A DNA stretch of 64,000 bases from Candidatus Moraniibacteriota bacterium (lineage in GTDB: Bacteria > Patescibacteriota > Minisyncoccia > Moranbacterales > UBA1568). The stretch covers positions 208,627 through 272,626 of the forward strand of contig JAQTYF010000001.1 in NCBI GenBank assembly GCA_028688415.1, given 5' to 3'. This document shows, piece after piece, positions 4,106-26,581 of the stretch; position 1 is the first letter of the stretch; the number at the start of each line of letters is the position of its first letter. The translations under genes and the position numbers were made by a program. Below the pieces are notes generated by a model. The model saw nothing but the letters and a program-made list of their open reading frames with translations. It searched no databases and was not told the DNA's origin.

Positions 4106-4327
4106 AGGAAATACTTTTGAGATCCGAATGCTTTTTCTTAGGTTTTTTATATTGACTTCTTTTATTCTTTGAGGATATACTCTATGGAAGTTTGATCATG
4201 CTTACCTAGGGATCCAAATGAAAGGGTTCTTGTGGTAGAGCGGGATCGTCCTGTTTTATCCTGCTGGGCGACTGGCGGGCTGGTGAGCGATCACCTTCAG
4301 TTCTTTTACAACCGGAGTATTTTTATC

Positions 4328-5383
4328 ATGAAAACCTTTGAAATTGGCAAGTTGTTTCACGAAGGGAATGTCCAGACCTCCGTCACTTTGATGGATTTCC
4401 CTTATCTGATCCCTGATGCGTTTTATGAGACACGAGAGGGGAAGAAGCTTTCTATCCCTCTGTTACGCTCGATACTGAGCGAGTATTCCAAGAACTATAT
4501 CCTCCTTAAAAAAGAAAGTGGCAAGGAAGAACGTCTTTTGGAACGAGCCTTGAAAACGCTGGAAACAGCGAATCACTATGAGTCGGCCTGCCCGAATGGC
4601 TTTTTCGGTCTTGACGGACTCGAACAGTCATTGAAAGATTTGGACGATCCCACAAAACATGTCATGATCTCGGCTGGTATGAGCAATGTCACATTCAAAC
4701 TTTTGCGTTTGGGTGACTGTATTGCCATGTTACCAACTGACTCACGAGGAGAAAATCATCAGGATGCAATCGGTATCCTCGACGACATAATGGAAAGAAC
4801 AAATGGAGTGATGAATCTCATACATTTCGTTCGGCAATATGGATTTTCTATTGTTCCAAACTATGCCCCAGATGGGAACAATGGCGGTATCTTTGATGTG
4901 GCCGACGAAATAGCGAAATGGCGTGTACATGCGCCTCTGATCAATTGGGTGGACGCGGAAGTTTTTACCCAGAGCCTGTCGGAAGATTTCATATCGAGTT
5001 CTGATAATGATGACGGTGGTGTCGTCATCGGATCGTACGGAGATATGGACGTTTTGATGAGAATCAAGTCCGCGAAAAACTCAAAAGACGACATGGCCTG
5101 GCGACGTGGATATATCCGGAGCCAGACGGCTACGAGAATCGTTTTCGAGTCGAATCATCGGTACATGATCGAAGTGGAGTATTTCTTGAGAGTCAAGAAT
5201 CTTCGGCCTTGTTGGCTTACCGCTGTCTCGCTGAAACACAGTCTTGATTACGGTACAGAACAACACTGCATGGCAGCCGTTGCACGAATGATGTATGCTG
5301 GACTTTATAGCCGTTCTTTTGAACAAACAATGAGTCACAATTCCCATCTTCGTTCATTCGTCATTTGTACTGTCTGTCGATAA
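4328..5383 (+). CDS. hypothetical protein
   Basis: Long ORF (track start GTG 4232; ATG 4328 MKTFEIGK chosen). No recognised domain. Confidence 0.45.
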   Translation: MKTFEIGKLFHEGNVQTSVTLMDFPYLIPDAFYETREGKKLSIPLLRSILSEYSKNYILLKKESGKEERLLERALKTLETANHYESACPNGFFGLDGLEQSLKDLDDPTKHVMISAGMSNVTFKLLRLGDCIAMLPTDSRGENHQDAIGILDDIMERTNGVMNLIHFVRQYGFSIVPNYAPDGNNGGIFDVADEIAKWRVHAPLINWVDAEVFTQSLSEDFISSSDNDDGGVVIGSYGDMDVLMRIKSAKNSKDDMAWRRGYIRSQTATRIVFESNHRYMIEVEYFLRVKNLRPCWLTAVSLKHSLDYGTEQHCMAAVARMMYAGLYSRSFEQTMSHNSHLRSFVICTVCR

Positions 5384-5414
5384 GTAGGTGGCTTTGGTCA
5401 CTACTGAATACAGT

Positions 5415-5478
5415 AAGGCCATATCAATAAAGTAGAATCACCCCGTTTTCCGAACCAGGAAGCGGGGGATTTTTTTAT
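5415..5478 (+). repeat. copy B of the ~64-bp terminator-bearing repeat
   Basis: Two mismatches to the copy at 4042-4105, same hairpin plus T-run. Confidence 0.6.
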
Positions 5479-5569
5479 AAAAAAGAGGAGAAATGAAGAA
5501 TCGTATTTTTTAAGCAATAAAAAAGCTCCTCCAATAAGAAGAGCTTTTTCAGTTGTCCGAATATATCGT

Positions 5570-5815
5570 TTAGCGTAAAGCTTTCACGATATAAATCAGC
5601 ACTACAGCGCCGATAAGGGCGACGACGAAGCTGTAGAGATCGAACCCAGACACTCCGGCCTGACCAAAAAAGGTCATGATCCAACCACCGACGACAGCGC
5701 CGACAATACCTACAATAATATTGAGGAGAATGCCTTGCTGACTGTCTGTGTGCATGAGAAGTGATGCGACCCAACCGACGAGACCACCAAAGATGATCCA
5801 AATAAGAAAACTCAT
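5570..5815 (-). CDS. GlsB/YeaQ/YmgE family stress-response membrane protein
   Basis: 81 aa, glycine-zipper TM segments (GGLVGWVASLL, GIVGAVVGGW) characteristic of the transglycosylase-associated family. Confidence 0.7.
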   Translation of the reverse strand: MSFLIWIIFGGLVGWVASLLMHTDSQQGILLNIIVGIVGAVVGGWIMTFFGQAGVSGFDLYSFVVALIGAVVLIYIVKALR

Positions 5816-5845
5816 AGAATTTAATGTTAATGAATTAAGAGGTTA

Positions 5846-6199
5846 TCAATCTTGTCGATCAAGTTTTACGGCTGCTTCAGGAGTAGAGACTGTCTTCCCC
5901 ATGACAAGGAGCTTGATAATACCCCATGCAAAGAGAAAATAGACGAACATAGCGAGAATGGTGGTCCATTCAAAAATACTCCCTTCCACTCGTGATATTC
6001 TGAAAACAGAAGTGAACGGTGCTACGAAGATACCAGTGGCGGTGTAGATGAAATCTGTGAATCCTGCTCCAGCATTGGCGCCGAAAAGCTTGAGGATGAG
6101 ACGAAACGCGAGGAGCGTTTCGAGAAGCCCGAGGAGATACCAGATGACCTGTGTTCCGCGATAGAGTGGTTTTGTGCTGCCTGATGACATTGCGTCCAT
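5846..6199 (-). CDS. YggT family membrane protein
   Basis: 117 aa, two TM segments with a YggT-like repeat organisation. Confidence 0.6.
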   Translation of the reverse strand: MDAMSSGSTKPLYRGTQVIWYLLGLLETLLAFRLILKLFGANAGAGFTDFIYTATGIFVAPFTSVFRISRVEGSIFEWTTILAMFVYFLFAWGIIKLLVMGKTVSTPEAAVKLDRQD

Positions 6200-6243
6200 A
6201 AGATTTTTCGTTACGGATTAAGGCATTTTTTCTATCTTTCTAG

Positions 6244-6259
6244 GTAACCACGTGGTTAC
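6244..6259. promoter_or_regulatory. 16-bp perfect palindrome GTAACCACGTGGTTAC in a divergent intergenic region
   Basis: Exact dyad symmetry with a CACGTG core between the divergent YggT-like gene and the ferredoxin-like gene; candidate operator. Confidence 0.4.
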
Positions 6260-6402
6260 ATGAATAATGAAGAAGAACTTTCATATCTCTATTGTACTCC
6301 TTATAGTTTAAATTAGCCAATGTTTTTTGAAAAAAGTCAAGAGGATAGAGGTGTCTTGTTGTTGATTTCCTTGCCAATTGCAGGTATACTCTATGCACAC
6401 TT

Positions 6403-6780
6403 ATGGAAGAAACAACATTACAATCATCGCTCTCTATCAAAGATATCCTTCCGGAGAAACAGGGGAAATGCCAAGCAACGATCAAGGTCTGTCTGCACGA
6501 TAAATGTTGTCGAAAGGGAGCGGAAGATATCTATAAAAATCTCAAAGAAGGACTCTCGAAAGAAGAAGCTCTTGTTTTGCCTATCCACGAATGTTTCGGA
6601 TTCTGCAAAGACGGTCCGAATATCTCTTTGAATGACAATATTATCAAAGGTGTTCGTCCTTTCTCAGCTGTGGAGCTCGTCAGAAGAGAACTCGAGAACC
6701 CATCCTGCAAGGCCGATGGACTCGGATCAAAAAGCATTGAGACACTTGACGATGTCTTGGAAAATATCGAAAAACTCTAG
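6403..6780 (+). CDS. thioredoxin-like [2Fe-2S] ferredoxin family protein
   Basis: Cys clusters VCLHDKCC and ECFGFCKDGPN match the NuoE-like thioredoxin-fold ferredoxin pattern. Confidence 0.55.
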   Translation: MEETTLQSSLSIKDILPEKQGKCQATIKVCLHDKCCRKGAEDIYKNLKEGLSKEEALVLPIHECFGFCKDGPNISLNDNIIKGVRPFSAVELVRRELENPSCKADGLGSKSIETLDDVLENIEKL

Positions 6781-6938
6781 AGTGAAATAAGAATCCGCCC
6801 ACATCGTTCTATGAAGTGTTTCGGGCAGGCCCGCCTGCAACGCTATGCGTAGCATTACGGGCAGGGTTGTAAAAAAAAGGTCTTTGTGATAGCTTGTTAT
6901 ATCAATAAATAACGAGCTTTTTTTGTAAAGACAAGGTC

Positions 6939-7505
6939 ATGAAACGAAGCAAAGCTTTTTTCAAGTCAGTACTCAAAGCGAATAAAGAGAGGATGCTCGC
7001 TACTTTTGATCGAGCGAAGAAACATACCCAATCGATGATGCAAAGAAACGTGAAACGAAATGAGAAGTCACTTCTGATAATTCTCTGGAACATCTATTAT
7101 CAGAAAATACGTACTGTCCTGTACTCTGCCTCTGCGAAATCAAGGACATACATCCGCCAATTTTCTTTACGAGATACTTATCGGAATATATCTGTTTTTT
7201 TCACCAAGACATTGAATCGCATGAAAGACACTTCTTTCGCGATATATGAGAATGTTATTCTGCGAGGAAAATATACGCATAAAATGTTTATGATACTTTT
7301 TCTGGTAGCTATTGTTTTTGGAATAGGAGTGAAATCTCTTGCTGTGAATATCGGTATGACGATGGGCTTTGATGATTACCTGGTTATTTCAGAGGATGTT
7401 CGTTATGATATCGGCCTTTTGCAAGAGAAAAATATGAACCAAACAAAAGAAGATTCAGAAAGTAACGAACGACAGGGCGATGTCTGTTCGGATTTGGAGA
7501 TATAA
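6939..7505 (+). CDS. hypothetical membrane protein
   Basis: ORF with one TM segment (FMILFLVAIVFGIGV); basic N-terminus. Confidence 0.4.
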   Translation: MKRSKAFFKSVLKANKERMLATFDRAKKHTQSMMQRNVKRNEKSLLIILWNIYYQKIRTVLYSASAKSRTYIRQFSLRDTYRNISVFFTKTLNRMKDTSFAIYENVILRGKYTHKMFMILFLVAIVFGIGVKSLAVNIGMTMGFDDYLVISEDVRYDIGLLQEKNMNQTKEDSESNERQGDVCSDLEI

Positions 7506-12814: not shown

Positions 12815-12885
12815 TGGGGTGTGGCCAAGCGGTAAGGCAATGGGTTCTGGTCCCATGATCCTAGGTTCGAATCCTAGCACCCCAG
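12815..12885 (+). tRNA. tRNA-Gln (anticodon CUG)
   Basis: Acceptor TGGGGTG/CACCCCA (U1-A72 as in bacterial tRNA-Gln), anticodon arm ATGGG-TTCTGGT-CCCAT, T-arm CTAGGTTCGAATCCTAG, discriminator G. Confidence 0.85.
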
Positions 12886-14409
12886 CATTGTTGAACGATG
12901 AGAGGCGAGAGCCTCTTTTTTCGTTTCTATAGCGAGGGAATTCAGTTCGAAGGTACGTTTTCTCTCTGTCAGAGTCTCCACATCTTCACGAAGCCATAAG
13001 AAAGGATCATTAAGGTCGAAATACGCTAGCTTGCGGTCTTTCACGCCAATGTTCGAAGTGAAAACTTCTACGATATCTCGTTTCATTTCTTTCGTGCCGA
13101 GATTGAAGAGATTATGCGCTGTTTTTATGAAACGAACAGCCTGCTCGATCTCGTCTCCAAGTTCTGCAGTAGTATGTTTTGCGTTAGAGAGCTTCTCTTC
13201 GATATTTGCTTCTTCCATTGTGATTTCTGAATACTTTCTATCGTATATTTCTTTCGGCAGAGCATTATCGATAAACTTCTCGACCAGCGACTCTTTGCGT
13301 CGGCGTGTGTCTTCGAGTATATGGAGTAATCGCGCCTCCGTTTCTTTCGCGAGATTGTCTTCGCTTCTCAATTTCTCTTTCGATGCATCCACGATCAAAT
13401 CCAGTATCTCATCATCGAAATGAATCTTTTTCAATTCTTCTGCAATATGTTTCTCCAAATCTTCCTCTCGTGTGTATGGCTGAGAACATTGTCTCACGCC
13501 TTTGGACTTGGTACACCGATAATATGTGTGGCCTTTTTGTATTTCTGCCGTCACCTTGAGTCCACATTCACCGCATACGAGAAAGCCTCGATAGGTGAAC
13601 AATCGTTTCGTATGTTGCGTTTGCCATTTCTTTGGTTCGAGTCGTTTCGTCGCTTCTTCGAAAGTAGCGAGTGAAATGATTGGTTCGTGAACACCGTTAT
13701 ATACCTGTCCTTTCCATTTGAAGAGCCCAGCATAGACTGGATTCGTGAGGATTCTATACACAGTGCTTTTGCCGACCCTGTTGCCGAGACGTGAACGGAA
13801 TCCCTCTTCGTAGAGGGTATTCGCGATACTCTCAACAGAGAGATTATCCGAAATATAGAGATCAAAGACACGTAAAACAAAAGGGACGGCTTGTGGATCC
13901 TGAATCATCGCTTTTGTCTTATAGTCCGACATATAGCCGAAAGGACGTGGCCCAGGATATTCGCCTCGACGTACTTTCTCTGCCAATCCTCGTCTGACAT
14001 TCTTACTCAAATCACGGATGTACTGAGTCGCCATAGAAAACTCGATACTTGCCATCACGACGTTATCTTCTGGATTGTACTCTCGATCAAATGTTCGTAT
14101 CTGTTTGATTGTCTCATTCTGTAACATCCATTTCACCATTCCCTCATCGACAGGATTGCGCGCCAAGCGATCGATTTTCCAACAGAGTACTCCTTGTGCT
14201 TTCCCTTGTTGAATGAATTTCATCATCTCTGCAAAGACTGGTCGTCCGGGAGCTTTCGCAGATTTTGATTCTTGAAAAATTTTGATGACACTCAGACCTT
14301 CGCGTCTTGCGATTTCTTGCATTTCAATAATCTGAGATTGAATAGACAAAGATTGTCGATCTTCACTCTCAGTAGATTTTCTGGCGTAGATGATGTAGTG
14401 CATATTCAT
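12874..14409 (-). CDS. large serine recombinase (integrase)
   Basis: N-terminal resolvase catalytic domain (YARKST...), recombinase domain, zinc-ribbon cysteines (CGECG...CTKSKG) and a coiled-coil C-terminus. Its stop codon overlaps the tRNA-Gln 3' end. Start taken at M26/M28 of the listed ORF. Confidence 0.85.
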   Translation of the reverse strand: MNMHYIIYARKSTESEDRQSLSIQSQIIEMQEIARREGLSVIKIFQESKSAKAPGRPVFAEMMKFIQQGKAQGVLCWKIDRLARNPVDEGMVKWMLQNETIKQIRTFDREYNPEDNVVMASIEFSMATQYIRDLSKNVRRGLAEKVRRGEYPGPRPFGYMSDYKTKAMIQDPQAVPFVLRVFDLYISDNLSVESIANTLYEEGFRSRLGNRVGKSTVYRILTNPVYAGLFKWKGQVYNGVHEPIISLATFEEATKRLEPKKWQTQHTKRLFTYRGFLVCGECGLKVTAEIQKGHTYYRCTKSKGVRQCSQPYTREEDLEKHIAEELKKIHFDDEILDLIVDASKEKLRSEDNLAKETEARLLHILEDTRRRKESLVEKFIDNALPKEIYDRKYSEITMEEANIEEKLSNAKHTTAELGDEIEQAVRFIKTAHNLFNLGTKEMKRDIVEVFTSNIGVKDRKLAYFDLNDPFLWLREDVETLTERKRTFELNSLAIETKKEALASHRSTMLGC

Positions 14410-15551
14410 CAATTGAAAATATATCCGATGAGGAGGAATGTACCAAGACAAAGAAAGTACACAACGATTTCCATTGGACGCCATTTTGAAAAAGGAGGAG
14501 CTCCTTTGTAGCGGAAGTTTTTATGAGATAAATACATATTGCGCAAAACAAAAGGGCACCCTTCGTTGCACACAGATCCTTTCGGACACTGTACGAAGGA
14601 ATGCCCTTTCGTCGGAACAACTAAGAATAGTTGCTCCATGTGTCCGAAATATAAATCTGTGTGCATATACATAGTACAGTATTTTTAGTATTTTCTCCAA
14701 ATCCAAACTCTTTTTTCTCTGCCTCTTCATCGCCCGCGTCGCTTCCGCTCCTTCTTCGCTTCGCTCACTGCCCTGAGCAGGGCAGGCGGGCTTCGTCTCT
14801 GCCAGCTCTCCTCTCTCTACCTCTTCAAACTTCTCCCGACGCCCCCAACAAATGTCAGAGCTCGATTCGGTTTCTGCTTCTCACATCACCTCAGTCTCGC
14901 TCCGTCTTTCTTTCACCCATTATCGTTGTGCTCGGAACCATTCGAACATCGACTGGAATCAGGAGTGCCTCTTGTCCCTCTCCGCAGAAGACTCCTCTTC
15001 CTGACAGTAAGAGGAGACATCTGCTTCGTAATGGTGGACGAGACTGGCACTCCCGACCCATCCGACGTTCGCCTGCCGAGCACAGCAGATTTTATTGCGC
15101 GGAAAAATGAATGACACTCTTTCTCTTCCGACCCGTGTCCTCGTCGATATCAGGGTGGATACCCCCCGGCCACCCTTCCCTGATAGACGAAGGACAAAAC
15201 CGCACTCCCGACAAGCATCGCATAAGTGCAACCCCTATTATGCAACTCTCATCCCAGAGATGAGGTCGCATAATTGGCACTTATGCCGACGCGTATCGGA
15301 GAGGCGGTGGCGGGTCGGTGATGCCCTGTCATACTTTTCGGAGTACTTTCCGCGCACCCGAGACACCGAGCACTTGCATCTTCGCGTCGTTTCTATTGCT
15401 TCCTTTTTGGTGAGAGGAGTGGCTCCTTGCCAAATACCACCACGCCTCACCCGTTCCATTTTTTCCGCCCAGCAGATTTTTCATCCTCTCCATTTTTTCG
15501 CATCTCTTTGTGTTTTTCATTCTTCTTACTTCTTATATTGAAAAAGATTCT

Positions 15552-15689
15552 TTCTTTTTCGATTCGATCGATTTTTCTTTGTTTCGATGTCGTCCTTGTC
15601 GAACGACAACAGAAAAATCATGTGTCGTTCTCTTTTTTCGTTTCTTCTTTTTCGTATTTCTTCTTTTTCGATTCGATCGATTTTTCTTT
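15552..15689. repeat. iteron-like module: two identical 29-bp direct repeats flanking a 14-bp perfect palindrome
   Basis: ttctttttcgattcgatcgatttttcttt at 15552-15580 and 15661-15689. TTGTCGAACGACAA at 15596-15609. A very AT-rich tract follows (15690-15765). Confidence 0.5.
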
Positions 15690-15818
15690 AAATTAAAAAT
15701 TAGAATTACTTTTATTATTTAATTTTTCTTTTTAAATGCTTATTTTTTGTGCTCATTCTTGATACCATTTATTGGTGCAAGATATGCTCTCCGGTCGGTG
15801 TAATTGTTACACCTACCC

Positions 15819-16178
15819 CTATCTTTTCCTTTGTTTGATAAGAAGGATATATCTGTTTACCTTCCGTGAGTTTTTTGATGATCGTTCTACGCGAAGATAC
15901 CCGATTTCTTCTAATTCCCCAATAGCTTTAATGACAGTATTCTTCGCACAATTAGTTTCTGACGCGATTGTTCTTTGTGATGGATGACAATCTTCTTTTC
16001 CAGCGAATGTATGCATGACCAAATTACAATATACCAGTTTCGCTGGTCTAGTGAGCCGTTTGTCCAGAAGCACTTTATGTGGAATCATTGAAAACCCGAT
16101 TTCTCTCCATTTGTCACGAGAGTTTTTGATGTATCCTTCCATGCGATTTCCTCGATTGATTATGTTCTTTATCTCCAT
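15819..16178 (-). CDS. winged-helix HTH protein, phage/plasmid replisome-organizer N-terminal-like
   Basis: LVYCNLVMHTFAGKEDCHPSQRTIASETNCAKNTVIKAIGELEEIGYL matches the replication initiator/replisome organizer HTH pattern. Confidence 0.55.
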   Translation of the reverse strand: MEIKNIINRGNRMEGYIKNSRDKWREIGFSMIPHKVLLDKRLTRPAKLVYCNLVMHTFAGKEDCHPSQRTIASETNCAKNTVIKAIGELEEIGYLRVERSSKNSRKVNRYILLIKQRKR

Positions 16179-16536: not shown

Positions 16537-17667
16537 CTACCTGAAAGTCATGAATATAATATTTTGTTTCTTATCAATCTTAAATTGAAAGTCTTTCAAT
16601 TTTTTATCTCTCTGCAGTTCACCACGGGTATTTTTTACAAAATTAAACCTTTCTGTGTGATTTAATTGCTTGCCAAAATTCACAGTGCTTATATTTAATG
16701 GCTCTTTACGAATATCTACATAGACTGCGTCTATATTTCTCCCATCTCCAAAATTTTTGACAAGACACTCGAGAAGTTTGAATTTTTGTGTATCTTTGCC
16801 ACCAATTTTTATAGCAACTTCTCCTGCTATCTGAAGAAAGCCGATCTTTTCCTTTATAAAACACGTTGGCGCCACCTTCCTTTTTACCGCTTTCATTCCA
16901 ATCTTTTTGAGGAATTTTTTCTGTAAATCAATGCTAACGAAAAAGCGCGATTCATCACGAGCGTTCTTTTCACTGCCGAGGCTATTGATTTTTACATCAC
17001 TGTTTTCTTCAAGCGCTAACATACAATCCAGCAGTCGAAAGTCCTCTCCAAACTCAAAATCTTTTAGTACCAGTCCCTCCCCGTATTTCTCATAGTCCGT
17101 CCGCGCTCTCTTTTCGAAGATTGCCTCATGGTCTGAAAAGTTGAGATATGCAATGTTTACTTTTTGCAGATTGTCTTCAGAAAACGCTTTGGCGTAGCTC
17201 TTAATAAAACTGTGGAGACCGTTTCTTGCTTTCTCTGTCATTGTAATTTTGAAATTAACACCACTAAATAACACGGCGGAAATTTTTTCTTGCTTTTGGA
17301 ACACTTCTTCTAAATCTGTAAGTGTAAATTTATTTTCAATGATTCTTTTTACAGACGTATATTTTTGTAATGGATCAGGATGGCACATTTGATAGAGATG
17401 CTCTTTTATTCCTTTTTTATCAGCATAGAAAAGTCCATATCGGTCAAATTCAAATTGCTTCAATTGTATTCCATAAGCGCTGTTTATTTGCGAGATTGTT
17501 TGAAAGACATAGAGCAGTGCGGGTTTTTTAAAATTAAAGAATTGTATTTCTTCAAAATCAAAACTCTTTTGTTCCCCGTATGGATAGTCGATCAATTTCA
17601 AGATAAGAAATAAAATATCCTCATCAATATAGGCTAATTTTTTTGTTTCTTTGGTGGCGCTTTTCAT
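16537..17667 (-). CDS. hypothetical protein (376 aa) of the mobile element
   Basis: Long ORF, AT-rich, no domain recognised. Its position next to the replication-like HTH and origin-like repeats suggests a replication or maintenance role. Confidence 0.45.
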   Translation of the reverse strand: MKSATKETKKLAYIDEDILFLILKLIDYPYGEQKSFDFEEIQFFNFKKPALLYVFQTISQINSAYGIQLKQFEFDRYGLFYADKKGIKEHLYQMCHPDPLQKYTSVKRIIENKFTLTDLEEVFQKQEKISAVLFSGVNFKITMTEKARNGLHSFIKSYAKAFSEDNLQKVNIAYLNFSDHEAIFEKRARTDYEKYGEGLVLKDFEFGEDFRLLDCMLALEENSDVKINSLGSEKNARDESRFFVSIDLQKKFLKKIGMKAVKRKVAPTCFIKEKIGFLQIAGEVAIKIGGKDTQKFKLLECLVKNFGDGRNIDAVYVDIRKEPLNISTVNFGKQLNHTERFNFVKNTRGELQRDKKLKDFQFKIDKKQNIIFMTFR

Positions 17668-17715: not shown

Positions 17716-17913
17716 ATGAAGACGCAACAGAAGAAAATTGAAGAATATCCTGAAATTCTCACACTTGCAGAGGCGTGTGAGTTGTTAAATTGCCACCCGA
17801 ACACACTCCGCAATTGGGACAATAAAGGAATCCTGAAAGCGATCCGATTTGGGACGCGCGGTGATCGACGATACAAAAAAGAGGATGTGTTAAAAATTAT
17901 CAATAAGGATTAG
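17716..17913 (+). CDS. excisionase-family (MerR-like HTH_17) DNA-binding protein
   Basis: ILTLAEACELLNCHPNTLRNWDNKGILKAIRFGTRGDRRYKKEDV fits the excisionase/AlpA-type HTH signature. Confidence 0.65.
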   Translation: MKTQQKKIEEYPEILTLAEACELLNCHPNTLRNWDNKGILKAIRFGTRGDRRYKKEDVLKIINKD

Positions 17914-17920
17914 TAAGATT

Positions 17921-18835
17921 ATGGCACTATTCAAGATCAGCGGCTCTGTCGTCAAGAAGATAATCGTAAAGGATGCAGATTTAGAAAAAAATCTACAATC
18001 TCTATTTGAACAAAACTTAGAAGAGATCTTGAATATTAATTTTCTTGCTCATGAATATTCCACGAGTTTTGGTGGAAGAATGGATACTTTGGGTATAGAC
18101 AAAAATGGCTCACCCTGCATTATCGAGTATAAGAAAAGTCAGAACGATAATGTTATCAATCAAGGTCTTTCATATTTGCGCTGGCTTTTGGATCACAAGG
18201 CTGATTTTGAAATTTTATGCAAAAATAAAAATATCAACATTGATATTGATTGGGATTCACCACGAGTAATTTGTGTTGCGGAAAGTTATAACAAATTTGA
18301 TATAGATACGGCGGATATTTTACCAATCAATATTGAGCTTTTGAGATACAGGATTTATGAAAACGATATTCTTTATCTTGAACCGGAGAGCTACCAAAAA
18401 ATAAAAATTTCTACTTCTGGAATTATCAAGAAATCAAAAAATAACAATAAAGAAAAAACGGAACTTTTGCAAAAAGATTATTCTGTGGAGGATCATTTAA
18501 AAAAGGCTGACCAAAAAACAAATGATCTGTTTCACAAATTACGCGAAAAAATTATTTCCATCGATGAAGAAATAAGAGAGGAACCAAAGAAATTTTATAT
18601 AGCCTACAAGACAGCAACCAACTTCGCCGACTTGATTATCTATAAGAATGAAATCAGAATTACGCTCAATGTAAAAAGCGGAAAATTAATTGATGTATTC
18701 GACATGGCGACAGATTTTACAAAACCCAAGAAAGGCCACTGGGGTAATGGAGACTATGAGGTGAAATTAAGGGAAGAGAAAGATCTTGAGTCAGTTTTTC
18801 TTTTAATCAAGCAAAGTTATGATTTGAATAAGTAG
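17921..18835 (+). CDS. NucS/DUF91-like PD-(D/E)xK nuclease-fold protein (candidate restriction endonuclease)
   Basis: GGRMDTLGIDKNGSPCIIEYKK gives D...(E)YK motifs after an LEEIL...L helix, as in NucS-like nucleases. Stop is 4 nt before the MTase start. Confidence 0.5.
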   Translation: MALFKISGSVVKKIIVKDADLEKNLQSLFEQNLEEILNINFLAHEYSTSFGGRMDTLGIDKNGSPCIIEYKKSQNDNVINQGLSYLRWLLDHKADFEILCKNKNINIDIDWDSPRVICVAESYNKFDIDTADILPINIELLRYRIYENDILYLEPESYQKIKISTSGIIKKSKNNNKEKTELLQKDYSVEDHLKKADQKTNDLFHKLREKIISIDEEIREEPKKFYIAYKTATNFADLIIYKNEIRITLNVKSGKLIDVFDMATDFTKPKKGHWGNGDYEVKLREEKDLESVFLLIKQSYDLNK

Positions 18836-18838
18836 TTT

Positions 18839-19915
18839 ATGGAAAAGAAATCATCATCAAACAACAATTTACATAAGGCCAGCAAGGAAAAAAAGGATGA
18901 GTTTTATACTCAGCTTGTTGATATTGAAAAGGAGCTGAAACACTACAAAAGCCAATTTCGTGGCAAAGTGGTATATTGCAATTGCGACGATCCATTTGAG
19001 AGTAACTTTTTCAAATATTTTGCTAGCAATTTTAAAGAACTTGGATTGAAAAGACTTATCGCTACGAGCTACAAGCCGTCTCCTATTGCCAATACGGAAC
19101 TTGTATTGCAGCCATCCCTTCTTCTCGGTTATGAAGATAAGATTGTGAGACAGCCAGTAGAACCAAAAGGCCGTCCAAAGGTAACGGCAAATAAATTCAT
19201 TATCAACGAGGTTGATGATATAGATGGCGATGGTGCATTTGATTTGCGTGATATTGCCGAACAACTCAAGGTCAATAAAAACAACGAATGGCTACCGCTT
19301 AAAGGCGAGGGGGACTTTAGAAGCAAGGAAAGCATAGAGTTGCTAAAGCAGGCTGATATTGTGGTAACAAACCCACCTTTCTCGCTCTTTCGTGAATATA
19401 TTTCTCAGCTTGTTGAATATAACAAGAAGTTCTTAATTATTGGTAATGTTAATTCAATTACTTACAAAGAATGTTTCAAACTTATAAAGGATAACAAACT
19501 GTGGCTTGGAGCAAGTATTCATAGTGGTGATCGTGAATTTCAAGTACCAGATGATTATCCCTTAAATGCTGCTAGTTCTAGGATTGATAGTGATGGAAAA
19601 AAATATATTCGTGTCAAAGGCGTACGTTGGTTTACAAATCTAGACTATGAAGAGCGCCATGAAAATTTAGTATTGTACAAAACATATATCCCAAAAGAAT
19701 ATCCCAAATATGATAATTATGACGGAATAAACGTTGATAAAACCGCTGATATTCCAGTTGATTACAACGGTGCCATCGGTGTACCGATTACTTTTTTAGA
19801 TAAATACAATCCAGAACAATTTGAGATTGTAAAATTTAGAAAAGGCGACAATGATAAGGATTTAGTAATAAATGGGAAATCGCCGTATTTTAGAATAATA
19901 ATAAAGAAAAGATAA
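18839..19915 (+). CDS. DNA N6-adenine methyltransferase (NPPF motif)
   Basis: Motif IV IVVTNPPF. Size ~358 aa. Translationally coupled to flanking nuclease genes. Confidence 0.7.
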   Translation: MEKKSSSNNNLHKASKEKKDEFYTQLVDIEKELKHYKSQFRGKVVYCNCDDPFESNFFKYFASNFKELGLKRLIATSYKPSPIANTELVLQPSLLLGYEDKIVRQPVEPKGRPKVTANKFIINEVDDIDGDGAFDLRDIAEQLKVNKNNEWLPLKGEGDFRSKESIELLKQADIVVTNPPFSLFREYISQLVEYNKKFLIIGNVNSITYKECFKLIKDNKLWLGASIHSGDREFQVPDDYPLNAASSRIDSDGKKYIRVKGVRWFTNLDYEERHENLVLYKTYIPKEYPKYDNYDGINVDKTADIPVDYNGAIGVPITFLDKYNPEQFEIVKFRKGDNDKDLVINGKSPYFRIIIKKR

Positions 19916-19916
19916 T

Positions 19917-21020
19917 ATGAAAATTGATCTACACAGAATCAAAGTACGCGAAGTGATCGACGGCTACAAAGACAGCGCCGAAGAAGGTGTTGTTGCGTAT
20001 GGTGGCAAGCTCGATGTTCGCCCCAAGTATCAACGTGAATTCGTCTATAAAGACAAACAACGTGATGCGGTCATTGATACAGTCAAGAAAGGATTTCCGC
20101 TCAATGTGATGTATTGGGTAAAGACTGGTGCGGACAGTTTTGAGGTGCTGGATGGACAACAAAGAACAATTAGTATCGGACAATATGCAAATGGTGATTT
20201 CTCGGTGGACTTTAACGGTCGTACGGCCATGTTCCATAATCTCACCAAGGAGGAAAAAGACCAGATCCTTGATTATGAATTGATGGTTTATTTCTGCGAG
20301 GGTACTGATAAGGAAAAACTTGATTGGTTTAAAATTATCAACATTGCTGGTGAAAAATTGACTGACCAAGAGCTACGCAATGCCGTTTATACTGGCTCGT
20401 GGCTTTCTGACGTAAAACTCAAATTCAGTAAATCAAATTGCGCCGCGTATCTTTTGGCGAATGACGGCGGTGCATTGCTTACCGGTTCACCGATACGCCA
20501 AGAATATTTGGAAACTGCGCTCTCGTGGATAAATAACGGCGAAGTAGCGGAATACATGGCAAAGCATCAGCACGACAAAAACGCTAATGAATTGTGGGAG
20601 TATTTTCAAAATGTTATTGCATGGGTGCGCAAAGCATTCCCTAATCACCGCAAAGAAATGGCGAATGTGAATTGGGGCGAGCTGTACAACCAGTTCGAAG
20701 ATGAGAAATTGGACGCCAAAAAACTAGAAGCCGAAGTTACAAAGTTGATGCAGGACGAAGACGTAACGAAAAAATCTGGTATCTACCCCTATCTTCTCAC
20801 GAGTCAAGAAAGACATCTCTCAATACGCGCCTTTAACGACAAGATGAAGCGCGAAGCTTACGAGCGACAGAAAGGTGTTTGCGTAAAGTGTAGGAAAGAG
20901 TTTGCACTCGAAGAAATGGAAGCCGATCACATTACCCCTTGGCACGAGGGTGGTAAAACGACTGCGAAAAATTGTCAGATGTTGTGCAAACAAGATAACC
21001 GCACTAAATCTGGGAAATAA
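19917..21020 (+). CDS. DUF262 (ParB/Srx-like, DGQQR motif) + C-terminal HNH endonuclease
   Basis: EVLDGQQRTISIGQY DUF262 motif. C-terminal CVKCRKEF...ADHITPWHEGGKT...NCQMLCKQDNRTKS HNH motif. GmrSD-like architecture. Confidence 0.8.
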   Translation: MKIDLHRIKVREVIDGYKDSAEEGVVAYGGKLDVRPKYQREFVYKDKQRDAVIDTVKKGFPLNVMYWVKTGADSFEVLDGQQRTISIGQYANGDFSVDFNGRTAMFHNLTKEEKDQILDYELMVYFCEGTDKEKLDWFKIINIAGEKLTDQELRNAVYTGSWLSDVKLKFSKSNCAAYLLANDGGALLTGSPIRQEYLETALSWINNGEVAEYMAKHQHDKNANELWEYFQNVIAWVRKAFPNHRKEMANVNWGELYNQFEDEKLDAKKLEAEVTKLMQDEDVTKKSGIYPYLLTSQERHLSIRAFNDKMKREAYERQKGVCVKCRKEFALEEMEADHITPWHEGGKTTAKNCQMLCKQDNRTKSGK

Positions 21021-21025
21021 GAGAA

Positions 21026-22219
21026 ATGACAACTCAAAATACAACTGATGGTGGATACTACGCAATAAAAGGATTTGCTTATCAAATAGACAAAGCTATT
21101 TTAGAGCTTTTAAATACTGACGATAATAATGCAAATATAAATATTGAGCAAATCCAAGACATTGACTCAAATAGTTATGTTATACAAGTTAAGTATAAAG
21201 AAAATGCAAAATTAGTGCCTTCACAAGTTAATAAACCAATATCTCAACTTATCGAGGAATTTAAAAAAGATAATAAAAAAAGTTATATCTTATATGTCTT
21301 TTTTTCGGATTTAAATGGATATGCTGATAAGGTTGATAAAGATAAAAAAATTTCAAAAGAAACATTGGACGAGCTTTTGGGAACTCAAAAAGATATATTC
21401 ACAAATCAGGAAAAAAAGAATTTTGCTAATAATTTTTACTTATTTCTTTCTCCTGAATTTCAAGCCCAATTCAATAGTATAATTTTAAAATTAAAAGAAG
21501 CAGGATTTGGAGATACTGATGAAGAGACAATATTTTACTATGCAAATATTTCGGACTATCTTTATAAAAAAGTTTGTAATAATTCAATAGCACAAGTCCG
21601 GAAGAGAACCTGTACTCAAAAAGAAATTTTTGATTATTTAAAAAATGGTAAAAAGTTAATTTCAAACTCTTCTTTTAGAGAGTATCAAGGAGATCAAAAA
21701 TACTTTAATTTTAATAAGAAACAATTCTTTAGTCAGAGAAATATTGATTATTTTGAAAGATTTATTGTAGTGGAATTGAACGGAGATGAAGACGTGGCGG
21801 AACTAAAGGAAATCTTATATAAAATAAAAAATAAATTCTACAACATTTCAGGGGATTGGACTTTTAAAAGAATAAAATCTCCCGCACCATACGTATTCCT
21901 AAAAAATATCTCGGAAGAAAAATTAATATTATTAAAAACCCAAATCTTAAAAGAGGGAATGGTTTTTAAAGATGGTTTTGATTTTCATGGCGCTCTCTTT
22001 TCTTTAACTTCAATAAAAGCAGATTCTACAACTCATAATAACCTTTGTTTGAAATTAATAAACAATGAAGAAAATTTTCAAAGTTTAATTGGTGAAGATT
22101 TTAAGAAAACAAAAGAAGTTTATCAGTTTTATATAAATGAAAGTATACCAATTGAATCTGATATAAAAAATATAAGTATAAAAATTAAAAATATTTTAGA
22201 TATTAAATTTATTCTTTAA
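21026..22219 (+). CDS. divergent DUF4297-like (Cap4-nuclease-like) protein, partner of HerA
   Basis: N-terminal GGYYAIKGFAYQIDKAILELL followed by D...QVK, compatible with the DUF4297 PD-(D/E)xK-like N-domain. 397 aa and immediately upstream of HerA, as in described DUF4297-HerA pairs. Very AT-rich, so assignment from memory is tentative. Confidence 0.45.
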   Translation: MTTQNTTDGGYYAIKGFAYQIDKAILELLNTDDNNANINIEQIQDIDSNSYVIQVKYKENAKLVPSQVNKPISQLIEEFKKDNKKSYILYVFFSDLNGYADKVDKDKKISKETLDELLGTQKDIFTNQEKKNFANNFYLFLSPEFQAQFNSIILKLKEAGFGDTDEETIFYYANISDYLYKKVCNNSIAQVRKRTCTQKEIFDYLKNGKKLISNSSFREYQGDQKYFNFNKKQFFSQRNIDYFERFIVVELNGDEDVAELKEILYKIKNKFYNISGDWTFKRIKSPAPYVFLKNISEEKLILLKTQILKEGMVFKDGFDFHGALFSLTSIKADSTTHNNLCLKLINNEENFQSLIGEDFKKTKEVYQFYINESIPIESDIKNISIKIKNILDIKFIL

Positions 22220-22230
22220 TTTTAAATATT

Positions 22231-24009
22231 ATGACAAGTTCAACAGGTGAAAAACTTGCTTTTGTGACCTCTGTATTTCCAAATAAAGTAAGAATTGAAG
22301 TCGTAAACCTAACAGCTTTCAAAGCCAATATTGATGACGCTCTGGGAGATTTGAAGATAGGCTCTTATCTTGAAATTTCCGATAATGATGGCTGTAGGCT
22401 GATAGCTATAATTGAAAGCTATCAAATAGAATTAAAAGAAAGAATTATTGAAAACGAACAAGGCGGAAAAGAAAAAGAAATTTACAATGCTTATGTTTTA
22501 GAGGCTAGTCCTCTTGGAACGATAAAGGATGGAAAATTTATAAGAGGTGGCGATGCATTGACCATTCCACCAACAGAAGTAAGGCCTGCTAACGCAGCCG
22601 ATATTAAACTTATTTATGAGACAGGTTTCGATGTCGCAGAAAAATTCTGTTTTGCAAAACTATCACAAGATGAAAACATATGTGTCCCCGTGAATGGAAA
22701 CAAATTTTTTAATAAACATTTTGCGGTGGTCGGTTCAAGTGGTTCTGGAAAATCACACACTATAGCAAAAATTTTACAAAATACTATTGATATAGAAAAA
22801 GGAACAAGAGCTTTTGATTTAAACAATTCACACATTATAATTTTCGATATTCACAATGAGTATAAAACAGCTTTCCCGGATGCAAATTTTTTGAACGTTG
22901 AAAATCTTATTTTGCCGTACTGGCTTTTGAATAGTGAGGAGCTAGAGGAATTATTTTTAGACACTGAAGCAAATGATCATAATCAAAGAAATATATTTAA
23001 GGAAGCAATTATAAATGAAAAAATTTCAAATGTAGTTAAAATGGAAAATGAAGATGCTACCGAATTTGAAAAAAGAAAGCAAAAAATTCACTATGACTCA
23101 CCAGTGCTATTTGATATTGGAAAAGTTTTAGAGATAGCAAATAATAAAAATGATGAAATGATAGATACTGGTGAAGTATATGCAAGTGGTGCAAAAAAAG
23201 GACAACCAAAAATGAATCAAGGATCTCTATTCGGTAAATTAACTAATTTTGTGAGTAGACTAGAAAATAAAGTTAACGATAAAAGATTTGATTTTTTACT
23301 AGGAGACAATTCCAAAGCTGTGTCATTTGAAGATACAATCAAACAATTTGTCGGCTATAATAAGCGTAAGAAAAAAAATGAGAGCGGAGAGGAAGTAGAA
23401 ATAGACAAATCAAACGTCACCATAATTGATTTAAGTGGGGTGCCCTTTGAAGTATTAAGTATTACCGTGTCCCTAATTTCCAGAATTTTGTTTGATTATG
23501 GTTATTTTTATAAAAAATACTTAAACGACGGAGTTGATTTAGAAACACCCCTTTTACTGGTCTATGAAGAAGCTCATAAATACGTACCAAAAAGTGATTC
23601 TGAAAAATTTAAAGCGTCAAGAAATGCAATTGAAAGAATTGCAAAGGAGGGTAGAAAATATGGTGTTACATTGGGCATAGTGAGTCAGAGACCATCAGAG
23701 ATATCAGAAACAATATTTTCTCAGTGTAATAATTTTATTGCTATGAGATTAACCAATCCAAGTGATCAAAACTACGTAAGAAGGCTATTACCAGATACCT
23801 TGGGAAATCTAATTGAAGCCCTTCCATCCTTACAGTCGGGTGAAGGATTGCTTTTAGGTGAAGCAGTAGCGATGCCATCTTTAGTAAAAATTGATAAATG
23901 TGAAGCTGATAAACAACCCTCTTCTAATGATGTGAAATATTTAGAAATTTGGAAGGATGAATGGAAAGATGTGAATTTTGAAAATATAATAGCAGAATGG
24001 AAAAAATAA
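22231..24009 (+). CDS. HerA-family (FtsK/HerA-type) ATPase/helicase
   Basis: Walker A VVGSSGSGKSHT, Walker B LLLVYEEAHKY, the typical HerA N-terminal barrel region, ~590 aa. Confidence 0.8.
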   Translation: MTSSTGEKLAFVTSVFPNKVRIEVVNLTAFKANIDDALGDLKIGSYLEISDNDGCRLIAIIESYQIELKERIIENEQGGKEKEIYNAYVLEASPLGTIKDGKFIRGGDALTIPPTEVRPANAADIKLIYETGFDVAEKFCFAKLSQDENICVPVNGNKFFNKHFAVVGSSGSGKSHTIAKILQNTIDIEKGTRAFDLNNSHIIIFDIHNEYKTAFPDANFLNVENLILPYWLLNSEELEELFLDTEANDHNQRNIFKEAIINEKISNVVKMENEDATEFEKRKQKIHYDSPVLFDIGKVLEIANNKNDEMIDTGEVYASGAKKGQPKMNQGSLFGKLTNFVSRLENKVNDKRFDFLLGDNSKAVSFEDTIKQFVGYNKRKKKNESGEEVEIDKSNVTIIDLSGVPFEVLSITVSLISRILFDYGYFYKKYLNDGVDLETPLLLVYEEAHKYVPKSDSEKFKASRNAIERIAKEGRKYGVTLGIVSQRPSEISETIFSQCNNFIAMRLTNPSDQNYVRRLLPDTLGNLIEALPSLQSGEGLLLGEAVAMPSLVKIDKCEADKQPSSNDVKYLEIWKDEWKDVNFENIIAEWKK

Positions 24010-24048: not shown

Positions 24049-24132
24049 TGAATGCAATTATATGTCCACACTGCAAGAAAGCTTTTAAGGTCGATGAGGC
24101 GGGATTTGCCGATATTGATGAATGGACAAGTT
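24049..24132 (+). pseudogene. 27-aa zinc-ribbon ORF resembling the N-terminus of DUF2130-family proteins (possible gene remnant)
   Basis: MNAIICPHCKKAFKVDEAGFADIDEWTSYR then stop. DUF2130 proteins start with a similar CPxC..F.VDE.GYA motif but are ~400 aa. Confidence 0.3.
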
Positions 24133-24835
24133 ACCGTTAAATATAACAAATATGGATCCACTCAAAACAAATGGTTTAATAATACAGAATTTTCCACAAG
24201 AGAAATATGAATCTATTCACCATATTTTGAGTAGCAAATATGCAGAAAAGAAAGAGTATGAACATTTTTCAGGAGCGTGGAATGCTACAGCTTATCGATA
24301 CAAAGCTACAATTGACCATGGAAGTGACTTCATCAAATTATTAAAATTATATGGAACGGCACCACAGCCAGAAAAAAGATATTTACAAGAACAAGCGCTT
24401 TTTAATCATTTCAGTTCGTGCTTTTCAGTTTTTGAATCAATGTGTTATGGATTTTATGCGATAGGATCAATTGTTAGTCCAGAATTTTTTTCTATTAACG
24501 ACACAGCAGATCAACGAAAAATATCTCCAGAAACAACAAAAAGAACTTTTCAAAAGGCATTTCCTGATGAACAAATCACTAAAACATTAATTGAGTTAAT
24601 TGCCGATTCAGAATTTGAAAATATTAGAAATACTAGGAATATTCTTACTCATCGAACAGCACCAGGAAGAAAGATTTATCTACACATAGGAGAAGATGAA
24701 TCACTCCCAACAGAATGGAAATTGAACAATAAACCCTTAAATGAATTGATAGTCAAATCAAACGAGGATAATATGAAAAGGCTTTTAAATAATTTACTAA
24801 CTGCAGGAGAAATGTTTTGCATATCACATTTATAA
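24122..24835 (+). CDS. hypothetical protein (237 aa)
   Basis: ORF in defense-island context; no domain recognised. Confidence 0.45.
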   Translation: MDKLPLNITNMDPLKTNGLIIQNFPQEKYESIHHILSSKYAEKKEYEHFSGAWNATAYRYKATIDHGSDFIKLLKLYGTAPQPEKRYLQEQALFNHFSSCFSVFESMCYGFYAIGSIVSPEFFSINDTADQRKISPETTKRTFQKAFPDEQITKTLIELIADSEFENIRNTRNILTHRTAPGRKIYLHIGEDESLPTEWKLNNKPLNELIVKSNEDNMKRLLNNLLTAGEMFCISHL

Positions 24836-24839
24836 TTAT

Positions 24840-25805
24840 ATGGCACGTAAAAATATTTTAAAAATACCAGCTAAGATAAAGAAGCAAATAGAAACATTTA
24901 GTCAGGATGATGTTGTTGTGGCTTGTGTAAAATATATTCCAAATGAAGAAATTCATAAATACAAACACTTAAACATGCGCTATATCAACGGCGAGCTAGT
25001 TCTTCCACCTTCAAAAACTCCAAATCACAATACCGGAAAATTTTCTCGGGCAAACCTAGAAGGTTTGGAGAAAAAAAGAACTGATTTACCAAAAATCTCA
25101 AAAGAATTTAGCTCTGAAGCTCCAAATTGGAATGGAAATGGCACACATGCTGTTTCTTATTCGCGGGATGTATATCAAAAGGATTTCTACCCACCCAAAG
25201 AAGTTGAATTAAAAATTGAGCAAATAGAAAAAAGAGAACATGGTTTCAAAATAAAATTTTTAATTGATCAAGTAATTAATCGAAATACTCTAAATTTTGA
25301 AAAAGAATTATTATATAACTTAAATTTATTACAAGAAAACGTTGGAATGATAGATGTCTTTCCGAGCATTGCAACTTTGGCAGATTATGCAAAAACCGTT
25401 TATATTGATTGGGAAATATTACCACCAGGAACTGTTGATGAGATTGTAGAGGCTTTGTTAAAAAACCAAAAAACAGGAAGTATTACTCCGGATCAAGTAA
25501 AAGTAATGCGGGAAAGAATAGGTGTCATGTCAAAATTGAAGCCCGTTGTGTATATAAAAGGGACAAGTGGTTTTTTAAGATATTTTGGGGCAAAGTTCGG
25601 AGACGATTTTGTTGTTTTTGAAAATATAAAATATGGAAACGCCCTGTATGTAATGTATGATTTATGGGTGGAGCTAAGTAAAAAAAGTAGGACAGAATTA
25701 CTAAATGGATCAAGAGAAGATTTTGAACGCATAGAGCATAGAGATGGATGGGGAGATGTTTTACAAAAATTTGTCAGAGAATATAGGCGTAAAAATAAAA
25801 ATTAA
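24840..25805 (+). CDS. hypothetical protein (321 aa)
   Basis: Starts 4 nt after the preceding ORF; no domain recognised. Confidence 0.45.
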   Translation: MARKNILKIPAKIKKQIETFSQDDVVVACVKYIPNEEIHKYKHLNMRYINGELVLPPSKTPNHNTGKFSRANLEGLEKKRTDLPKISKEFSSEAPNWNGNGTHAVSYSRDVYQKDFYPPKEVELKIEQIEKREHGFKIKFLIDQVINRNTLNFEKELLYNLNLLQENVGMIDVFPSIATLADYAKTVYIDWEILPPGTVDEIVEALLKNQKTGSITPDQVKVMRERIGVMSKLKPVVYIKGTSGFLRYFGAKFGDDFVVFENIKYGNALYVMYDLWVELSKKSRTELLNGSREDFERIEHRDGWGDVLQKFVREYRRKNKN

Positions 25806-26265: not shown

Positions 26266-26380
26266 CAAGCTTCTCTATCCGAAGTAATATCAATTCAAGT
26301 CCCTTCCTCTTTTCAATCAAATGTGCAAGAATTGAAGGGTAAAATCCGTTCACAACCGCATCCCTCCACCCCAGCATTGA

Positions 26381-26412: not shown

Positions 26413-26581
26413 TGTTTTAATATAGGTGCCAGGAGTCGAAGTTTATGCCCTTTAGGGTAAATCCTAGCACCTCAGCCACGAAAAGTGGCTTCGCCACCTC
26501 GTGGCCTTAGGCCAATAAAATGGCTTTTCAGGCCTCTTAAAGTGAGCAGTGAGTATTCCTAGTACCTCAGAAAAAAAATTT

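Follow-up and report, generated by a model that had tools for sequence, protein, structure and literature searches.

A restriction-modification pair and a PDC-S18 candidate nuclease as probably independent modules of a defence island in a Candidatus Moraniibacteriota bacterium

Why should a single adenine methyltransferase gene be enclosed by genes for two different nucleases? The question is raised by three adjoining genes, referred to here as g1, g2, and g3, in a 64,000-nucleotide stretch of DNA from a Candidatus Moraniibacteriota bacterium (GenBank assembly GCA_028688415.1, contig JAQTYF010000001.1, positions 208,627 to 272,626 of the forward strand); this whole stretch is termed the window, and its numbering is used throughout. 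A preliminary description of the locus had suggested either a restriction-modification (RM) system with an attached modification-dependent Type IV enzyme or one composite three-gene system. The probable answer is that the locus consists of two independent defence modules, an RM pair (g2 and g3) and a candidate nuclease (g1), which share a transcript and belong to a mobile element integrated in a candidate phyla radiation (CPR) bacterium. On this view, one methylase with two nucleases ceases to be an oddity: a common RM pair is accompanied, in a mobile island of defence genes, by a candidate gene that had already been catalogued.

The three open reading frames (ORFs) lie on the + strand, and the coordinates and spacers first given for them were confirmed in the window, as was the presence in their translations of the motifs IEYK (g1), IVVTNPPF (g2), and DGQQR with HNH (g3). 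The genes and the two domains of g1 are:

17921-18835, + strand: g1, PDC-S18 family, 304 amino acids (aa), PD-(D/E)xK nuclease domain plus DUF5655 (full-length PADLOC PDC-S18 match)
17921-18391, + strand: N-terminal nuclease domain of g1, aa 1-157, NucS/Shedu-like PD-(D/E)xK fold, with E22, D55, E69-x-K71, Q81, and Y85
18485-18829, + strand: C-terminal DUF5655 domain of g1, aa 189-303, alpha/beta fold of the YdhG/frataxin type, GHWGNGD loop conserved
18839-19915, + strand: g2, EcoRI-family N6-adenine DNA methyltransferase, 358 aa, with an NPPF motif (Pfam EcoRI_methylase, PADLOC MTase_II)
19917-21020, + strand: g3, DUF262(ParB-like)-HNH nuclease, 367 aa, predicted restriction partner of g2 (PADLOC REase_II PDLC03418, Pfam GmrSD_N and HNH)

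A spacer of 3 nucleotides (nt) separates g1 from g2 (TAG-TTT-ATG) and one of 1 nt separates g2 from g3 (TAA-T-ATG). The best hidden Markov model E-values are 3e-96 for g1 (PADLOC PDC-S18), 1.6e-145 for g2 (Pfam EcoRI_methylase), and 3.4e-143 for g3 (PADLOC REase_II), and matches of this strength argue that the three ORFs are not chance occurrences. The sequence AAGGA is found before the ATG of g1; no Shine-Dalgarno-like sequence precedes the ATG of g2 or g3, an arrangement that would fit translational coupling. Scans for promoters and terminators performed no better than on shuffled sequence.

The assignment of g2 as an N6-adenine methyltransferase, made originally from its motif, is firmly supported by the profiles: the Pfam EcoRI_methylase (PF13651) match scores 485 bits against a cut-off of 26.4, and the PADLOC MTase_II model PDLC03297 matches end to end (1.9e-128). 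In g3, the PADLOC REase_II match to PDLC03418 spans residues 1-367 of the protein on a model of 372 positions, and Pfam places GmrSD_N at aa 34-158 (3.8e-18) and HNH (PF01844; also HNH_5) at aa 322-365; the corresponding motifs are VLDGQQRT and a C-terminal DH...N...N HNH motif. The DUF262-HNH architecture proposed for g3 therefore stands, whereas its description as GmrSD/BrxU-like does not, since a Pfam search gave no DUF1524 match at E <= 0.01.

The gene neighbourhoods of g3 were surveyed in loci fetched from metagenome and viral collections, with the counts limited to loci with room upstream. A g2 homologue adjoins g3 in 59 of 61 metagenomic loci and in all 42 viral loci (101/103), and g1 is found upstream of g3 in only 1-2 of about 80. 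Because it is almost never found without a methyltransferase, g3 behaves as the restriction half of an RM system and not as a Type IV enzyme; this and the full-length Type II restriction endonuclease (REase) match speak against the idea of an attached modification-dependent enzyme. An annotated EcoRI-family methyltransferase gene also lies beside a DUF262 gene on plasmids of Bacillota, Pseudomonadota, Actinomycetota, and Bacteroidota; plasmids with a pair of the g2-g3 type are often 7-10 kb in size, and in one example the two genes overlap by 4 nt. For assignment to Type II RM, g3 presents both a co-occurring methyltransferase-REase gene pair and membership of a recognised REase family. Judged by profile matches and gene pairing, g2 and g3 constitute a self-sufficient and widespread Type II-like RM pair, and cleavage by g3 would be blocked by g2 methylation, an expectation drawn from the near-obligate pairing with a methyltransferase.

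Literature and REBASE clues yielded no characterised enzyme, REBASE member, or recognition sequence for the g3 family; the sequence search of solved structures had no useful match for g2, and for g3 it returned just a generic HNH protein. A palindrome-avoidance analysis of the 64-kb window, directed at the target of the RM pair, detected no signal among 6-mers. In the window, CATG and GATC fall clearly short of Markov expectation (116 vs 202 and 245 vs 342, respectively); nothing ties these tetramers to g2-g3, and their depletion hints at other restriction pressures in the genome.

The g1 protein matches PDC-S18 models over its full length (PDLC04946, residues 2-301; PDLC04945, 1e-72), and its C-terminal match to Pfam DUF5655 is above the gathering threshold. 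PDC-S18 is one of 145 untested candidate families (Payne et al., 2024); no match to the name PDC-S18 was obtained in the literature search or in the supplements of that study. The nuclease domain of g1 holds GGRMDTLGID...PCIIEYKK. An AlphaFold2 model built from 85 diverse representatives has a predicted local distance difference test score (pLDDT) of 90.7 and a predicted template modelling score of 0.81; it replaced an earlier model that was based on a shallow alignment (71-88% identity) and rendered the nuclease domain poorly (pLDDT 67). The 85 sequences, which are 30-68% identical to g1, all have E22, D55, K71, Q81, and Y85, and nearly all retain E45, R53, D60, and E69. This conservation shows that the nuclease site is under selection, and g1 is probably an active nuclease. 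The fold of the DUF5655 domain resembles the DNA-binding YjbR and the MotA C-terminal domain. A search of solved structures by sequence returned nothing useful for g1. The family comprises 2,495 clusters at 50% identity and includes variants with tandem DUF5655, with DUF4268 in place of DUF5655, and, in one case, with an N-terminal HIRAN fusion; HIRAN domains bind DNA 3' ends, and this fusion is a further point in favour of an active nuclease.

Related g1 loci were collected by scanning one genome per species with the g1 alignment, which gave 72 loci at 55-88% identity. These span Patescibacteria, metagenome-assembled genomes (MAGs) labelled Zixibacteria, Elusimicrobia, Gammaproteobacteria, Bdellovibrionales, and others, and archaea (Woesearchaeota, Micrarchaeota, and Thermoplasmata); even between distant phyla and archaea, g1 retains 60-88% identity. 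By local profiles, a methyltransferase gene lies within 4 kb of g1 in 49 of 69 loci and some RM gene does so in 51 of 69, leaving 18 with no RM gene at that distance. The next ORF after g1 encodes a methyltransferase in 29/67 loci, compared with 8/195 among ORFs at distances above 4 kb (p 2.5e-13 by Fisher test). Pfam matches among the 51 immediate downstream genes include 11 to N6_N4_Mtase, 9 to N6_Mtase, 6 to EcoRI_methylase, and 5 to D12, with further matches to HsdR, EcoRV, TdeIII, and Mrr; cluster representatives near g1 comprise HsdM-HsdS-HsdR sets, Type III Mod-Res, an EcoRV and D12 pair, DpnI, and RadC. The RM partners of g1 cover Types I, II, and III and at least five methyltransferase families. 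In 58% of loci, 0-5 nt lie between the g1 stop and the following start codon; of the other same-strand pairs on these contigs, 16% are this close. An integron-like recombination core after the g1 stop was considered and rejected, as the spacers are 1-5 nt long and the downstream starts are unrelated.

More distant relatives of g1 (30-36% identity) are found on plasmids, in the order hsdS-DUF5655-hsdR in Acinetobacter baumannii and hsdM-hsdS-DUF5655-hsdR on a Cupriavidus plasmid; on the A. towneri plasmid pNDM_SCLZS30 (locus L202, positions 4132-7012), genes for an HNH endonuclease, a DUF5655 protein, and another PD-(D/E)XK protein lie between hsdS and hsdR. This nesting in Type I operons agrees with a remark in older literature that describes COG3586 as a family of putative endonucleases adjacent to a Type I RM gene cluster. 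In Rhizobium the g1 relative is divergent and lies beside a Type I operon, and on Staphylococcus and Streptomyces plasmids it is found alone; g1 can stand alone. On the evidence of its neighbours, g1 appears as a companion of many RM types that is tied to no particular RM specificity.

Immediately upstream of g1, 16 loci carry a small DNA-binding gene, of the HTH_3 (XRE) type in 13, HTH_17 in 2 (including the window), and MazE/AbrB in 1; the gap to g1 is 1-7 nt in 15 of the 16 and 103 nt in L001, one of the collected loci. Where they lie upstream of g1, the XRE proteins are reminiscent of the controller proteins of RM systems; an antitoxin-like partner is another possibility, given how varied the folds are. 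A phmmer search with the small helix-turn-helix (HTH) protein of the window detected no homologues among the upstream ORFs of the other g1 loci. A large serine recombinase gene is located upstream of g1 in 16 of the 72 loci, often divergently adjacent, and likewise in the window.

Two further arrangements were seen around g1. In L008 (2409-3409), L013, and L030, g1 is followed by an ORF of 73-78 aa whose beginning is similar to an N6_N4 methyltransferase N-terminus; the gene after it encodes a DpnI-family (methyl-dependent) nuclease in L008 and L013, and L030 ends at a contig edge. It looks as if the methylase gene has been shortened and replaced in these loci. In L038, L040, L041, and L042, the gene for a Fic/DOC-domain protein of 316-354 aa precedes g1 by 4 nt, and Type I or Type III RM genes come after g1.

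The complete g1-g2-g3 trio does occur elsewhere, on about 7 contigs: it was found in L002, L014, L024, L049, L050, and L149, and in L012, where it is cut at the contig end. These are only about 7 of the 72 g1 loci, and a single fixed composite system, as proposed in the preliminary description, is not borne out by such counts or by the rarity of g1 beside g3. The relationships of the parts also differ from one another: the g1 of the window is closest to that of L002 (86% identity), its g2 and g3 are closest to those of L050 (70% and 80%), whose g1 is 65% identical, and the g3 proteins of L014 and L024 are only about 40% identical to that of the window. This incongruence implies that the trio was joined or reshuffled more than once and is not a co-evolving unit of three parts.

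A working model with two modules can be proposed. In the RM module, g2 would place N6-methyladenine at a specific site on host DNA and g3 would cut DNA that does not carry the mark, with the HNH domain as the blade. The ParB-like DGQQR domain of g3 would serve as an NTP-binding or DNA-handling part; it is probably nucleotide-binding, because nucleotide is bound by the DGQQR domain in other DUF262 proteins. In the second module, g1 would be an autonomous DNA nuclease that adds a sequence-independent layer to restriction. Like a Shedu-type nuclease, it might act against damaged DNA or DNA ends, possibly including the products of restriction on invading DNA, and it would be co-regulated and co-transferred with RM genes, often under the same small regulator. 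That g1 attacks the DNA ends made by restriction is put forward tentatively, as an idea with some appeal that may well prove wrong. A broader proposal is more doubtful still: the PDC-S18/DUF5655 nuclease might be a general, specificity-independent RM accessory of small-genome CPR bacteria and DPANN archaea, the synthesis of which is translationally tied to the methyltransferase gene that follows (Type I, II, or III) and which finishes restricted DNA or senses the methylation or DNA-end status.

Other explanations of the locus were weighed against the two-module model. If g1 and g3 were both needed with the methyltransferase in an obligate composite, such as an RM system with a Type IV arm in which unmodified DNA is the substrate of one nuclease and foreign-modified DNA that of the other, the recurrence of the same three families in the same order, with all junctions very short, would be expected; however, g2-g3 are without g1 in about 98% of sampled loci, about 90% of g1 loci are not followed by g2-g3 and have unrelated RM systems there, the modules have incongruent relationships, and g3, without DUF1524 and the size of GmrSD/BrxU, is paired with a methyltransferase, the opposite of a modification-dependent enzyme, all of which makes this the least probable of the readings considered. 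A different possibility is that g1 acts in RM operons as a regulator or expression leader comparable to a C protein, with a nuclease-derived fold that binds DNA and sets the timing or ratio of expression. Its place as first or second gene of the operon, the 0-5 nt to the next gene in 58% of loci, and the resemblance of its C-terminal fold to YjbR and the MotA C-terminal domain are compatible with such a role, as are partners from unrelated methyltransferase families, which imply that the link is not a specific protein contact. A regulator is nevertheless unlikely: an invariant catalytic set (E, D, ExK, and QxxxY) across relatives of 30-68% identity is unusual for a domain that only binds DNA, 16 loci already have a separate small DNA-binding gene upstream, the distant relatives in Type I operons are situated between hsdS and hsdR and not at the head, and about a quarter of g1 loci have no RM gene nearby.

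As a homing-type or recombination-associated nuclease for mobility or maintenance of the element, with the RM genes as cargo, g1 would be expected near recombinases, as in the window and the 16 loci with a large serine recombinase upstream, and the identity of 60-88% across phyla and archaea, which implies frequent horizontal transfer, and the highly variable downstream cargo also agree with this function; but most g1 loci have no recombinase within 8 kb, the distant relatives in plasmid Type I hsd operons have no recombinase link, the neighbours of g1 are specifically RM genes and not general cargo, and no conserved recombination-site candidate was found after the g1 stop, so that a mobility function is quite unlikely. 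Mix-and-match of partner folds is typical of antitoxins, and the small DNA-binding genes of at least three folds that precede g1 in 16 loci (by 1-7 nt in 15) could accordingly be read as checks on a toxin-like abortive-infection nuclease, with the RM genes merely co-located. About three quarters of g1 loci lack an upstream small gene, however, which would leave the toxin unguarded, and the XRE-type genes are explained equally well as RM controller proteins; a toxin is regarded as very unlikely.

The two-module model has several points against it. The junctions between g1 and methyltransferase genes are tighter than hitch-hiking alone predicts, which hints at a functional tie between g1 and methylation closer than a model with an autonomous layer assumes. 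The proposed DNA-end role of g1 draws on fold resemblance and the single HIRAN fusion, and the REase label of g3 comes from a PADLOC model and gene context, not from a named characterised enzyme. The searchable literature holds no functional, biochemical, or phage-assay study of the g1 or g3 family. In addition, most of the related loci come from MAG contigs, their genes were called with a simple ORF picker, and some of the flanking regions are truncated.

The trio is surrounded in the window by the following features:

12815-12886, + strand: tRNA-Gln (ARAGORN and Rfam)
12874-14484, - strand: large serine recombinase gene abutting tRNA-Gln (Pfam Resolvase, Recombinase, and Zn_ribbon_recom)
17716-17913, + strand: small HTH_17/MerR (excisionase-type) DNA-binding protein, 65 aa (Pfam HTH_17 9e-12, MerR_1 6e-9)
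21026-22219 and 22231-24009, + strand: two-gene DUF4297-HerA anti-phage system behind g3 (PADLOC DUF4297 1.6e-55, HerA 5e-235)
26357-26379, + strand: imperfect repeat of the tRNA-Gln 3' terminus (83%), which may mark the right-hand limit of the island (repeat search)

The GC content is 27-36% over 16-26 kb of the window, against about 40% otherwise. On the left, the recombinase ORF and tRNA-Gln overlap at their 3' ends; on the right, a second imperfect copy of the tRNA-Gln 3' end (74%) follows the first at 26458-26480, and the copies are possible att remnants bounding an island of 13.5 kb. Housekeeping genes are located outside it, FtsE/FtsX at 9.9-11.9 kb and a pyrophosphatase at 27.2 kb. Because of the low GC content, the tRNA-Gln and recombinase at the left, the tRNA repeat at the right, and the housekeeping flanks, the locus is counted among the cargo of an integrated element, about 13.5 kb long, with several defence modules. 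A Candidatus Moranbacteria MAG encodes a protein with 100% identity to g1.

The HTH_17/MerR gene, which stops 7 nt short of g1, is likely the first gene and the regulator of a packed array of at least six genes (HTH, g1, g2, g3, DUF4297, and HerA), in which the DUF4297 gene follows g3 after 5 nt and HerA follows DUF4297 after 11 nt; short spacing is thus not peculiar to the g1-g2-g3 trio. The DUF4297 (397 aa) and HerA (592 aa) proteins are below the NCBIfam cut-offs (DUF4297_antiphage, 209.6 vs 300; HerA_antiphage_2, 780 vs 850). Further along the low-GC island are two co-oriented ORFs, at 24122-24835 (237 aa) and 24840-25805 (321 aa), separated by 4 nt; neither has a match in Pfam, PADLOC, or NCBIfam, and they could form a further defence pair.

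Between the recombinase and the defence array, genes on the - strand for an HTH_36 winged-helix protein (15819-16178, 119 aa) and for a 376-aa protein without a family match (16537-17667) may be core genes of the element, involved for example in replication or regulation. The stretch at 14500-15800 is pyrimidine-rich, with an AT skew down to -0.26, and its ORFs are only implausible low-complexity ones; a direct repeat of 34 nt lies within it (15547-15580 and 15656-15689, 94% identity), and no Rfam family matches in this interval.

Annotation of the PADLOC type already gives Type II RM, PDC-S18, and DUF4297-HerA for the locus. The pair of DUF262-HNH nuclease and EcoRI-family methylase is a very common RM type and a possible source of new enzyme specificities. 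The g1 family is abundant, conserved across distant phyla and archaea, and coupled to RM genes far more tightly than are ordinary neighbours. If g1 does cooperate with restriction, it would represent a new accessory layer of RM, relevant to the defence of minimal-genome CPR bacteria and DPANN archaea; if it is a general RM accessory, an RM operon plus leader nuclease would be a distinct operon architecture that has gone unrecognised.

Among known systems, Type II RM with an HNH-type REase is matched end to end by g2 and g3, which occur as a near-obligate pair on plasmids, contigs of viral collections, and chromosomes; g3 differs from it by its N-terminal ParB-like DUF262 domain with DGQQR, which suggests nucleotide dependence. 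With GmrSD, BrxU, and SspE, g3 shares the N-terminal DUF262/GmrSD_N domain, the DGQQR motif, and a C-terminal His-Me finger nuclease, but its C-terminus is a classical zinc-ribbon HNH (PF01844) in place of DUF1524 and the protein has 367 aa; comparison with solved BrxU or SspE chains gave no match at E <= 0.1, and the BrxU-like PADLOC model HEC-05 matched only residues 36-69 (E 0.005).

For g1, the nearest likenesses are in fold and in habit. It shares the PD-(D/E)xK core with a NucS-like fold, which upholds one part of the NucS-like label first given to it; the family assignment fails, as the NCBIfam NucS match is marginal (E 1e-3, 18.2 bits against a cut-off of 216), no Pfam NucS match was obtained at E <= 0.01, and the N-terminal DNA-binding/dimerisation domain of NucS/EndoMS is missing, with an accessory DUF5655 domain instead and an RM context in place of repair. 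Compared with Shedu (SduA), the accessory domain of g1 is C-terminal and of the YdhG type, and g1 has no match to the PADLOC Shedu models at E <= 0.01. Like PrrC, which is almost exclusively embedded in Type I RM systems (Payne et al., 2024), g1 is a single accessory gene habitually found within RM operons; it differs in having the fold of a DNA nuclease and not of an anticodon nuclease and in not being limited to Type I, and it is not known to interact with RM proteins. It is PDC-S18 that g1 resembles most closely, by a full-length match and by the presence of distant relatives inside Type I RM operons, with the difference that the sampled clade of g1 from CPR bacteria and other phyla heads Type I, II, and III operons and is not only nested in those of Type I.

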